From positions 1 through 28,704 of the forward strand of contig CAZQCZ010000002.1 in the NCBI GenBank assembly GCA_964592215.1: a stretch of 28,704 bases of DNA. Direction: 5' to 3'. The DNA is from an uncultured Candidatus Saccharibacteria bacterium (GTDB lineage Bacteria; Patescibacteriota; WWE3; 9FT-COMBO-53-11). The notes beneath the pieces are model-generated. The model ran no database searches and had not been told where the DNA came from. It saw only the letters and a list, made by a program, of their open reading frames with translations. The position numbers were made by a program, and so were the translations under genes. Shown piece after piece: positions 13,111 to 15,434 of the stretch. Each line of letters starts with the position of its first letter. The stretch's first letter is position 1.

Positions 13111-13120
13111 CAATCGCCTG

Positions 13121-13129
13121 TGCTATCAT
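13121..13129 (+). promoter_or_regulatory. Extended -10 promoter of dnaX
   Basis: TGcTATCAT lies 5 nt before ATG 13135 and 11 nt before ATG 13141; no SD. Confidence 0.55.
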
Positions 13130-13134
13130 TGGCG

Positions 13135-14583
13135 ATGAGAATGCTCTATCGAAAATATCGGCCCCAGAAGTTCAGCGAGCTTATTGGTCTTGATCCCGTC
13201 AAAAAGACGCTTCTTTCCCAAGTAAAGGAGGGGAAGATCGGTCATGCCTATCTCTTTTCCGGTCCACGGGGGACTGGGAAAACGTCGACGGCGCGAATCC
13301 TGGCGAAAGCGATGAACTGCCTTGGCAGCGAGGGCGGCGAGCCATGCGGCGAATGCATCGTTTGTGAACAAATCGAGGGGGGGCGGTTTCTTGACCTTAT
13401 TGAAATTGACGCCGCTTCCAATCGCGGGATCGATGACATCCGCTCTCTGCGGGAGAGAGTTCGGCTGGCGCCGTCCTCCGGCAATTACAAAGTCTACATC
13501 GTCGACGAGGCACACATGCTCACCGCCGAAGCCGCTAATGCTCTGCTTAAAACTTTAGAGGAGCCGCCGGCGCATGCCATTTTCGTTCTTTGCACGACCG
13601 AGCCATACAAACTGCCGGCGACGATTCGCTCCCGCTGCCAGCAGTTTAACTTTGAGCGAGCTTCCACTCCTCTTATTGTTGAATGCTTGGGGGGAATTTG
13701 TCGGCGGGAAGGAGTGACGCTTGGAGATGAGGAGTTGGAAGAAATTGCTAAGGCCGCCGGCGGCGGTTTCCGAGATGCCGAGACTCTCCTCGAGCAAGTA
13801 ATCACCGGAAGCCAGAAAGTATCGGACCTTGTTGGTCTCACTGACCTTGACGATCTGGGAGATTTCTTTGATCACCTAATCGCCGGAAATAGTTCGGGGG
13901 CCTTGGTCTATCTCAACGCTCTTTACGACAAGGGTATTGGAATGGAGAATCTGTGCCGGAAGATTTTGGAATACCTTCGTGACCTTTTGCTGATTAAGGC
14001 GGGGGTAGGGGAGAGCTTGGTTGAGGTGGGGAAGGACCAGTTTGCCAAGATGCGGGCGCAGGCTGCATCGTTGGAACCATTTCGGCTTGTCAACATGATC
14101 AATAAGTTTACCCAATCTTACGAAAACCTCGCTCAGAGCTCGGTCCCAACGCTGCCGCTTGAGGTGGCAGTCGTTGAGGTGTCAGCTCCGGGTCAAATGT
14201 CCCCGCCAAGCACAGATTCGCCTCTGAGTGAAAAAATCAAAGATCAAAAAGAGGGGAGCAGAATGCGGACGGTTGGAGATGTGCCTGATCAACCAGTCAG
14301 CCAGCCGACCACTGGACTGGCCGATTGTTGGTCTGAATTGATGAGGCAGGTCGAGCCGCTCAATCACAGCGTTGCCGCCTTGTTGCGCTCTTGTGAGCCC
14401 GGAAAAGTGATGGGTCGCAAGCTCATTATCTGCGCTTTTTATCCATTCCACAAAGAGAGGTTAGAGGAGCCGAAATGTCGGACGATCCTGGAGCAGGCGG
14501 CGAAGGAAGTGTATGGTAAGAATCTAGGAGTTGAGGTGAGGCTGGCAAGAGGGAAGCAGCTTGTGTCGGGTTCGAAATCTTAG
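13135..14583 (+). CDS. dnaX: DNA polymerase III subunit gamma/tau (start at 13135 or 13141)
   Basis: LYRKYRPQ, GPRGTGKT, CGEC..C, EIDAASNRGID, DEAHML, LKTLEEPP and TIRSRCQ. Confidence 0.97.
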   Translation: MRMLYRKYRPQKFSELIGLDPVKKTLLSQVKEGKIGHAYLFSGPRGTGKTSTARILAKAMNCLGSEGGEPCGECIVCEQIEGGRFLDLIEIDAASNRGIDDIRSLRERVRLAPSSGNYKVYIVDEAHMLTAEAANALLKTLEEPPAHAIFVLCTTEPYKLPATIRSRCQQFNFERASTPLIVECLGGICRREGVTLGDEELEEIAKAAGGGFRDAETLLEQVITGSQKVSDLVGLTDLDDLGDFFDHLIAGNSSGALVYLNALYDKGIGMENLCRKILEYLRDLLLIKAGVGESLVEVGKDQFAKMRAQAASLEPFRLVNMINKFTQSYENLAQSSVPTLPLEVAVVEVSAPGQMSPPSTDSPLSEKIKDQKEGSRMRTVGDVPDQPVSQPTTGLADCWSELMRQVEPLNHSVAALLRSCEPGKVMGRKLIICAFYPFHKERLEEPKCRTILEQAAKEVYGKNLGVEVRLARGKQLVSGSKS

Positions 14584-14750
14584 ATTCGAAACGAATTTCG
14601 GCGAAGCAGGTCACAAATCACAAGCGATACAACCTTGGAGAGGGGGACATTGGCGTTCGCAGAGGTACAGACTAGTAGATATTGGCAATACGAAGTTGGA
14701 AGAGGGGGCGGCTGAGGTTGTTAGTATAGGCTTAGTGCTTCGATTTTTGA
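14571..14750. repeat. Intergenic repeat element between dnaX and recR, related to the rpsR-ctpA spacer
   Basis: Contains the near-palindrome TTCGAAATCTTAGATTCGAA. AGATTCGAAACG (14582-14593) is identical to 19756-19767, and the right end TTAGTGCTTCGATTTT resembles TTTAGTGTTTCGAATTT at 19809. Confidence 0.6.
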
Positions 14751-14753
14751 CTC

Positions 14754-15434
14754 ATGAAGGTTCCGAGAGCGATCAAAAATTTAATCGATGCCCTTGAACG
14801 GCTGCCGGGGATAGGTCCAAAAACGGCAGCGCGGTTAACCTTTTATCTTCTCCATGTTCCTGAGGCGGAGCGGGAGAAGCTGGGGCAGGCCGTGCTGGAG
14901 TTAGGGAAGGAGACAGCGATTTGCCAGCGGTGTTTCAACATTGCCAACCCCCCTTCGTCCCTCGACGGGCTCGGGACTACGGAGGGGCAGGCCCTCCCTG
15001 TCCTTTGTGAGATCTGCAGCGATTCCAGTCGTGACCAGTCAACAATCTGCGTCGTCGAAGAGCCGTTGGATCTGATGGCGTTTGAGCGGTCAGGAAAATA
15101 CCGCGGACTCTACCACGTTCTTCAGGGGGCGATTGCCCCCTTGGAGCACATCGGACCGGAGGATTTGAAGATAGACGAGTTAATGGCTCGTCTGAAGAAT
15201 AAAGCAGGAGGTGAGGGCCAGGTGAGGGAGGTCATCCTTGCAACGAATCCCTCGCTTGAGGGTGAAGCGACGGCGATGTACGTTAGGCAACTAATCAGAA
15301 GCCAGGAATCTAAAGACAGCGGTAGGAAGGTAAAGGTCACGAGAATTGCGCGGGGAATCCCGACCGGAGGCGATTTGGAGTATGCAGATGAAACTACTCT
15401 AACTAAGGCATTGGAAGGACGGCAGGAGTATTAG
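14754..15434 (+). CDS. recR: Recombination mediator RecR with an insertion in the Zn finger
   Basis: HhH LPGIGPKTAARL, CQRC...CEIC, CVVEEP, YHVLQG and Toprim EVILATNPSLEGEATA. Confidence 0.97.
   Translation: MKVPRAIKNLIDALERLPGIGPKTAARLTFYLLHVPEAEREKLGQAVLELGKETAICQRCFNIANPPSSLDGLGTTEGQALPVLCEICSDSSRDQSTICVVEEPLDLMAFERSGKYRGLYHVLQGAIAPLEHIGPEDLKIDELMARLKNKAGGEGQVREVILATNPSLEGEATAMYVRQLIRSQESKDSGRKVKVTRIARGIPTGGDLEYADETTLTKALEGRQEY
14950..14987 (+). repeat. Palindromic mini-element inserted in frame in recR
   Basis: CCCCTTCG-TCCC-TCGACGGGCTC-GGGAC-TA-CGGAGGGG forms a nested hairpin and encodes part of PPSSLDGLGTTEGQA. Confidence 0.7.

Follow-up and report, generated by a model that had tools for sequence, protein, structure and literature searches.

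What gave rise to the long loop in the zinc finger of a RecR protein whose two CxxC pairs are separated by 24 residues, as against 8 in solved RecR structures? The window analysed here, i.e., the whole stretch of 28,704 nt (contig CAZQCZ010000002.1 of assembly GCA_964592215.1, positions 1 to 28,704, forward strand), contains an intact recR coding sequence at positions 14754-15434 of the + strand, delineated from the ORF list, Pfam, a match to the solved structure 3VDP and an AlphaFold2 model. The 226-aa product matches the Pfam models RecR_HhH, Toprim_4 and RecR_C and is similar to 3VDP over its full length (phmmer, E = 7e-60), and its relatives belong to WWE3/Patescibacteria. The predicted HhH motif, C4 zinc finger, Toprim domain and C-terminal motif follow one another in the expected order, supporting its assignment to RecR. 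The two knuckles of the zinc finger, C57-Q-R-C60 (14922-14933, + strand) and C85-E-I-C88 (15006-15017, + strand), occupy invariant columns of alignment A1, so that all four zinc-finger cysteines are invariant. A Pfam search of the 226-aa protein gave no match to the RecR zinc-finger model, which fails because of the insert described below. The gene directly upstream of recR is dnaX (13120-14583), from which it is separated by a 170-nt spacer (14584-14753). In many bacteria a ybaB/ebfC-like gene lies between dnaX and recR; no such gene was found at 14584-14753 of this window.

The phmmer alignment to 3VDP contains one single 16-residue gap, comprising residues 67-82 (nt 14952-14999). Relative to the solved RecR and to insert-free relatives, the protein therefore carries an in-frame insert of 48 nt, or 16 residues (P67-P82), at 14952-14999 of the + strand. 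The original prediction had noted 24 residues between the CxxC pairs against about 8 in typical RecR proteins, and both values were confirmed (C57/C60 and C85/C88 here; 8 residues in 3VDP). It had also proposed an alignment with relatives, which delimited the insert and revealed that the site is empty in several of them; in three genomes of the same family (L015-L017), the loop without insert consists of 8 residues between the cysteine pairs, CERCFNIAEAPLCKVC. An AlphaFold2 model built with 34 RecR sequences reached a mean pLDDT of 82 overall. Within the insert, residues 71-80 showed a mean pLDDT of 56, while the flanks were well predicted, and this drop suggests that the insert is a flexible loop at the surface of a RecR that is normal elsewhere. 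The protein is presumably still functional, the loop being neutral for RecR function.

The insert is one copy of a repeat element whose long form spans positions 14947-14994 (+ strand), as bounded by its similarity to two other loci of the genome, C52:3259-3306(-) and C10:15145-15185(-). Its outer stem, defined by the consensus fold of three copies and by the family listing, consists of a 5' arm CCCCTTCG at 14950-14957 (+), containing the CCTTCG that represents the conserved 5' motif of the family, and a 3' arm CGGAGGGG at 14980-14987, the two arms pairing with one G-T pair. Between them lies a 19-nt half-site, CCCTCGACGGGCTCGGGAC (14959-14977, +), located by an approximate-match scan of the genome and holding the inner stem TCCC/GGGA, the arms of which are (G)TCCC at 14957-14961 and GGGA(C) at 14973-14977. 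The stretch CTACGGAGGGG (14977-14987, +), common to all listed members of the family, unites the conserved CTWCGGA motif with the outer 3' arm. It is followed, with some overlap, by a non-palindromic tail, GGGGCAGGCCC (14984-14994, +), which was found in 7 copies with unrelated left flanks and sets the orientation of the element. The recR copy is thus nested: the short-form repeat of this genome (CCTTCG ... CTACGGAGGGGCAGG) serves as an outer shell around the inner half-site, and these inner 19 nt recur alone elsewhere in the genome.

A nested hairpin in the extra DNA had been part of the original prediction. Its geometry was upheld by the RNAalifold consensus of the three long copies, in which 2 of 11 pairs are changed on both sides, a consensus that lends weak support because only three sequences contribute to it. 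The folding energy was not above chance relative to shuffled sequences (for the 61-nt segment z = -0.6, for the 42-nt segment z = -0.2), 44-83 of 200 shuffles folding as stably as the element. Since folding is not significant, the case rests on the recurrence of the sequence.

A scan of the genome for further copies, also proposed originally, bore out this recurrence at the DNA level. The 604,608-bp genome harbours 3 long copies (including that in recR), found by a pattern search and short-word BLAST, and about 8 short ones, that is, around 11 copies of the shell type plus a few half-site copies; as the genome is an 89%-complete bin of 70 contigs, these copy counts, and likewise the absence of a transposase reported below, are provisional. 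The copy at C52:3259-3306(-) shares 14/14 and 20/21 nt with the recR copy at its two ends (ACCCCCCTTCGTCC ... GGACTACGGAGGrGCAGGCCC), with an identical spacing of 13 nt between them; its loop differs, and one stem pair is compensated. The copy at C10:15145-15185(-) shows 88% identity to the recR copy over 41 nt. No convincing ORF covers the C52 copy, which is apparently non-coding, and the C10 copy forms the last ~20 codons (3' end) of a GT2 glycosyltransferase gene in a frame that differs from that used in recR. Thus, the likeness exists at the DNA level and not at the protein level.

The short form follows the pattern CC(C/T)CCTT(C/T)G, a short variable centre and CT(A/T)CGGA, often with GGGCAGG. 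Reverse copies are located at C51:903-930(-), C64:281-308(-), C23:9381-9409(-), C53:404-422(-) and C10:15086-15105(-), and forward copies at C23:8789 and C23:9262(+) and at C54:3415(+). A loose version of the pattern gave 25 matches versus about 12 in reversed-genome and block-shuffled controls; the strict version gave 5 matches here, whereas neither the reversed controls nor any of 133 other genomes of the class contained one. The approximate-match scan with the half-site yielded 9 matches versus 4 in the control. The copies run in either direction and are read in several frames; some are located in apparently non-coding DNA, and some follow immediately on the CCA end of a tRNA.

These matches bear on whether the loop could have grown in place, by slippage or hairpin-templated duplication, and resemble other loci through a shared GC-rich bias instead of common descent. 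Such local mutation would fit the ordinary folding energy and the high variability of the loop in relatives, one of which (L012) holds a simple GACCAGA-type tandem repeat at this place. However, some 21 defined bases agree with C52 at the same spacing, and neither this match nor that of C10 is what composition alone would give; the strict pattern, moreover, is missing from the controls and from the 133 other genomes. We therefore regard local growth of the loop as very unlikely. The decisive evidence is the copy number of the repeat, and the RecR loop is, with high probability, a dispersed DNA repeat that was inserted secondarily.

Metagenomic sequences were compared with the same locus. Four independent metagenome runs contain the recR locus with the insert at 100% identity, and no empty recR site in a near-identical strain was found, 4/4 runs with the locus holding the insert. 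Other metagenome contigs from the same samples match only 14948-14982 or 14944-14989, beyond which their sequence is unrelated, and several of the contigs break off at the element; partial matches, unrelated flanks and contig breaks constitute the behaviour expected of a repeat. Direct repeats flank only 2-3 of 10 copies, so that no consistent transposition signature emerges; a repeat matching at 7/8 positions accompanies the C52 copy, and a 9-nt repeat one extra metagenome copy. Set against the features of a MITE, namely terminal inverted repeats, regular target-site duplications and a related autonomous IS, the majority of the copies show no flanking repeat, and no transposase came to light in the genome. 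Two additional repeat families were observed in the genome, namely a 24-nt palindrome, ATCATACTCTACAGTATGATAGCA, in 5 copies (C22:6918, C24:1000, C24:2659, C26:2351 and C39:5404), and a unit of ~45 nt, CCTGTCGAGAGCCGGGGGCTAAAAGCCCTCGGATGAAGACAGGAGG, in 4 copies (C3:567, C35:6004, C45:8 and C58:598), which resembles a structured leader with a Shine-Dalgarno sequence at its end.

Insertion of the element into coding sequence is not confined to recR. A ThiI/MnmA-like tRNA sulfurtransferase gene on C64 contains the short copy in reverse orientation, which accounts for exactly 11 residues (33 nt), in frame. No orthologue of this ThiI-like gene was found in nine genomes of the family, and a protein search was therefore used instead. 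The inserted DNA is identical in a 98%-identical JGI relative and occurs nowhere else among the homologues compared: ten of them, at 55-74% identity, lack it. A direct repeat of 9 nt (8/9 matching) borders the insertion. The copy on C51 lies in reverse orientation within a long ORF, in yet another frame. In dtd (C13:11716-11735; L176:317-336), a half-site copy in reverse orientation coincides with 6 extra residues, ASPEPR, in a comparison made with E. coli Dtd (1JKE) alone. The idea that an element analogous to the Rickettsia palindromes creates peptide loops in conserved genes is thus supported, both by the dispersed copies and by the in-frame inserts in the ThiI/MnmA-like gene and in dtd; that the element is selfish, as originally put, we infer from its distribution.

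Comparison of RecR proteins across relatives placed the insertion in a wider context. Among 34 RecR sequences the loop ranges from 8 to 38 residues, and on a tree calculated after masking of the loop, sequences with 8 residues are intermingled with those carrying an insert. In G007, which belongs to a different genus of the same family, the same recR site is occupied by a different variant of the family, CCTTCGACAAGCTCAGGACGGGTGGG. Its motif CCTTCGACAAGCTCAGGAC is present in 14 genomic copies versus 0 in the control, counted by exact motif with mismatches allowed; 2 of these copies lie directly after a tRNA CCA and 2 beside GIY-YIG genes, and at least 7 overlap long open frames, four of these reading D-P-S-x-G-S-G-Q. 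The half-site region of the recR element is 20/22 identical to a G007 copy (L055), and a Logan contig contains element-like DNA, CCTTCGACAAGCTCAGGGCAAGC, in its recR loop. From these alignments, the zinc-finger loop of RecR appears to be an insertion hot spot in this family. In each genome, the recR insert thus corresponds to the repeat family of the genome itself, which implies that insertions took place independently at one site or that the copies were homogenised; in both cases the repeats are evolving as DNA. RecR has two more variable sites, one after RLK and one before the last Toprim strand (15190-15215 and 15295-15330 in the window), and the RecR of the window carries small, unrelated expansions at both. 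The site after RLK reads ..SSFA(E/K)ASGDK.. in P0003, P0004 and P0007, and in the recR gene of P0003 (L029), the DNA of codons ~150-162 is a short-form element, CCTCCTTCGCCGAAGCTTCGGGGG, at this second recR position.

A loop of the D-P-S-T-S-S-G-Q-A type is common to several relatives, as would be anticipated if the zinc finger had long ago gained a functional extension that is maintained as protein sequence. Nevertheless, the DNA that encodes these loops is itself element sequence (CCTTCGACAAGCTCAGG..), RecR proteins free of the insert are scattered among them on the tree, genera do not share a conserved loop sequence, and the loop is predicted as a low-confidence coil. The original prediction had named as its counter-case an ancient insert conserved only at the protein level and having no other genomic copies. 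The DNA copies in other frames, in the other orientation and in apparently non-coding DNA, together with the in-frame inserts in other genes, exclude a protein-level or purely ancient origin, and an ancient functional extension is extremely improbable.

To which proteins could the spread of the element be attributed? The genome contains only two PF01541 (GIY-YIG) genes, C23:8914-9231 (106 aa) and C54:3041-3301 (87 aa). Both encode single-domain proteins, both are situated at tRNA loci and flanked by the element, and CGGGCAGGCAAA adjoins both genes too. The best match of the two proteins among solved structures is UPF0213 BH0048 (E = 6.5e-5), and NCBIfam produced only weak, sub-threshold matches to a group I intron endonuclease. 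A search for a RAYT/Y1 transposase (PF01797) gave 0 matches in the 89%-complete genome, while control genomes do give matches. Of the partners suggested originally, a nuclease or a transposase, candidates for the former were therefore obtained, in the form of two GIY-YIG genes flanked by copies, but no RAYT/Y1 transposase. Four of the 11 copies lie less than 300 nt from the two GIY-YIG genes, against 0.03 expected (P ~5e-4 even when counted as two loci), a clustering that is confounded with clustering at tRNA loci, 3 of the 11 copies lying less than 150 nt from a tRNA (P ~0.001).

The arrangement of the two loci was examined further. At C23:8696-9420 (L008:1408-2140), four copies of the 16-nt 3' end of tRNA-Ser(gga), CCCGCCCCCTCCGCCA, are present. 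Together with the element, this 16-mer makes up a unit of 104 nt that is repeated directly on both sides of the 106-aa GIY-YIG gene. This layout looks like serial insertions into a tRNA 3' end, each of them restoring the tRNA end. At C54:2890-3445 (L020:1330-1890), as well as in JGI L180, the 87-aa GIY-YIG gene is located between a 5' leftover of tRNA-Gln and an intact tRNA-Gln, and the same layout was found in the metagenomic relatives L181 and L182 (55-61% identity); the tRNA-Gln/GIY-YIG unit of C54 is flanked by a direct repeat, G(G/T)CTACGGAAT. A metagenome search with a single protein retrieved 9 loci with GIY-YIG homologues. Those at 44-48% identity (L183, L184) are flanked by TCGAC..CTCAGGA hairpins, and more closely related ones are, as is the C54 gene, located at tRNA-Gln. 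Related genomes contain 1-7 small GIY-YIG genes each, and a tRNA lies within about 150 nt at 11 of 14 loci; the remaining PF01541 matches of these relatives are in 454-aa frames or below the cut-off.

The association with tRNAs extends to the element itself. The sequence T-CCTTCG(A/C)C is present straight after the encoded CCA of tRNAs at C23:8784, C27:4600(-) and C54:3414, and of two in G007 (L044, L049); the element may double as, or derive from, a feature of the tRNA 3' trailer. No tRNA of the genome starts with the GGGCAGG of the tail, which was considered as a possible tRNA 5' end. The CCA-adjacent copies at three tRNAs here and two in G007 would suit a motif that is useful to the host, either as a hairpin for processing of the tRNA 3' trailer or for termination, or as an NTS-like site controlling recombination or uptake, with the coding copies as tolerated by-products of gene conversion. 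The conservation of the non-palindromic CTWCGGA and GGGCAGG parts points in the same direction, and the NTS of Neisseria does have a host role in transformation (PMC11893778). However, the majority of the copies are away from tRNAs; copies within enzymes, in either orientation and in different frames, make little sense for a signal acting at the transcript level; and within one family the sequence changes from genus to genus, in the manner to be expected if the repeat evolves fast and is parasite-like. Furthermore, an Rfam search of five element-bearing loci at a permissive threshold returned tRNAs and chance matches only, and no family for the element. A host signal is thus an unlikely origin of the repeat.

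The inner part of the recR element leads beyond this lineage. The half-site CCCTCGACGGGCTCGGGAC is a variant of a 19-nt motif, CCTTCGACARGCTCAGGAC, which belongs to a hairpin-arm family and was found as an exact match in at least 120 contigs (L056-L175) of many phyla, among its carriers being Sphingomonadales, Chloroflexota, Bacteroidota, Burkholderiales and Acidobacteriota. In Altererythrobacter fulvus (L105:4080-4490), a 97-aa GIY-YIG gene is enclosed by inverted repeats of at least 31 nt that hold CCTTCGACARGCTCAGGAC, and its product is 41% identical to the C54 protein. At L137:3033-3415, a GIY-YIG gene is likewise flanked by hairpin repeats. A derivation of the palindrome from a GIY-YIG cassette whose two ends had become joined found no support here, as the arm order in copies such as L047 (motif, then complement) is opposite to that of joined L105-type ends. 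It is conceivable, if rather doubtful, that the mini GIY-YIG genes at tRNA loci and the hairpins constitute one mobile system shared by CPR and many other phyla, with a 19-nt half-site identical at every base from Sphingomonadales through Chloroflexota to WWE3, in which an Ssn-like ssDNA nuclease would drive the copying and insertion of 20-50-nt units and new loops would arise routinely in essential proteins such as RecR, ThiI-like proteins and Dtd.

Taken together, the data are probably best explained by the secondary in-frame insertion into recR of a short, GC-rich, lineage-specific hairpin repeat. The element would spread by copy-and-insert and may be mobile at present. Inside genes, the survivors would be those copies that are free of stop codons, have a length that is a multiple of three and fall into tolerant surface loops, and the zinc-finger loop of RecR would be one such loop, struck repeatedly in the family. 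The most likely driver would be a small single-domain GIY-YIG nuclease, by analogy with Ssn and the SRM/NTS hairpins, and we tentatively propose the GIY-YIG protein as a candidate mover of the element. This nuclease would act on the hairpin in single-stranded form and nick it on the side that bears the conserved CTWCGGA, after which repair or template switching against another copy would add copies, short duplications or microhomology at the target being possibly involved.

Were the element mobile, ultra-small genomes supposed to be streamlined would harbour an agent that keeps adding peptides in frame to core enzymes of repair and translation, and mobile hairpins of this kind would explain many lineage-specific loops in CPR proteins. 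A true link to GIY-YIG proteins would widen the recently described Ssn/SRM pairing, adding a new repeat family as well as insertion within genes, and would suggest that the same enzyme class stands behind RPE-like elements. Should the hairpins and nuclease genes indeed form one system, these 20-50-nt units would be among the smallest mobile units known. In practical terms, the elements break Pfam models, as in the case of the RecR zinc finger, and metagenome assemblies at the repeat.

A literature search found no description of such elements in Patescibacteria; several known systems offer points of comparison. Rickettsia palindromic elements (RPE) were reportedly described by Ogata et al. in 2000. 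Both RPE and the element studied here are dispersed repeats of palindromic layout in a reduced genome, the hairpin being in our case a consensus geometry of ordinary folding energy, and both insert in frame in conserved genes, adding a peptide loop and leaving the ORF intact; here, several dispersed copies were found, with in-frame insertions that are absent from homologues in recR, in the ThiI/MnmA-like gene and, relative to E. coli, in dtd. Unlike RPE, which measure roughly 100-150 nt, the CPR element comprises 20-50 nt and occurs in another phylum; given this size, it is an analogue of RPE and not a member. It also differs in being nested and modular (shell plus half-site), and in its marked association with tRNA 3' ends and mini GIY-YIG genes.

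The REP/REPIN-RAYT systems likewise combine short, many-copy palindromic repeats with a single nuclease-like gene flanked by repeats, whereas here no Y1 transposase is detectable and the elements are not confined to extragenic DNA. In phage T4, SegB is a free-standing GIY-YIG homing endonuclease encoded in a tRNA gene cluster. The GIY-YIG genes described here similarly lie among tRNA genes, but their proteins are devoid of any DNA-binding extension, and the genes are linked to dispersed hairpin repeats that invade coding sequence too.

Ssn proteins are single-domain GIY-YIG nucleases that cut ssDNA beside a genome-wide hairpin repeat flanking their own gene (Chenal et al. 2025, PMC11893778), and the authors note an IS-like repeat-gene-repeat layout and a richness of SRM in Rickettsia (PMC11893778). 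A scan with the SRM consensus HGTCWY..YYVSBRH..WNVSBRG..RNCYNB gave 4 matches in our genome versus 4.3 in shuffled genomes, and none of them overlaps the element. The repeats thus fall outside the published SRM consensus, and the genes differ from ssn in being located in tRNA loci with duplicated tRNA ends. The two systems share several features: the GIY-YIG genes encode a single domain (about 90-110 aa in Ssn; 106 and 87 aa here), the nuclease gene is flanked by a genome-wide hairpin repeat of 20-50 nt with a conserved non-palindromic side, and the repeat-gene-repeat layout recurs on C23 and in Altererythrobacter (L105). By this analogy, a partner resembling the Ssn/SRM pair would be plausible for the element inserted in recR.
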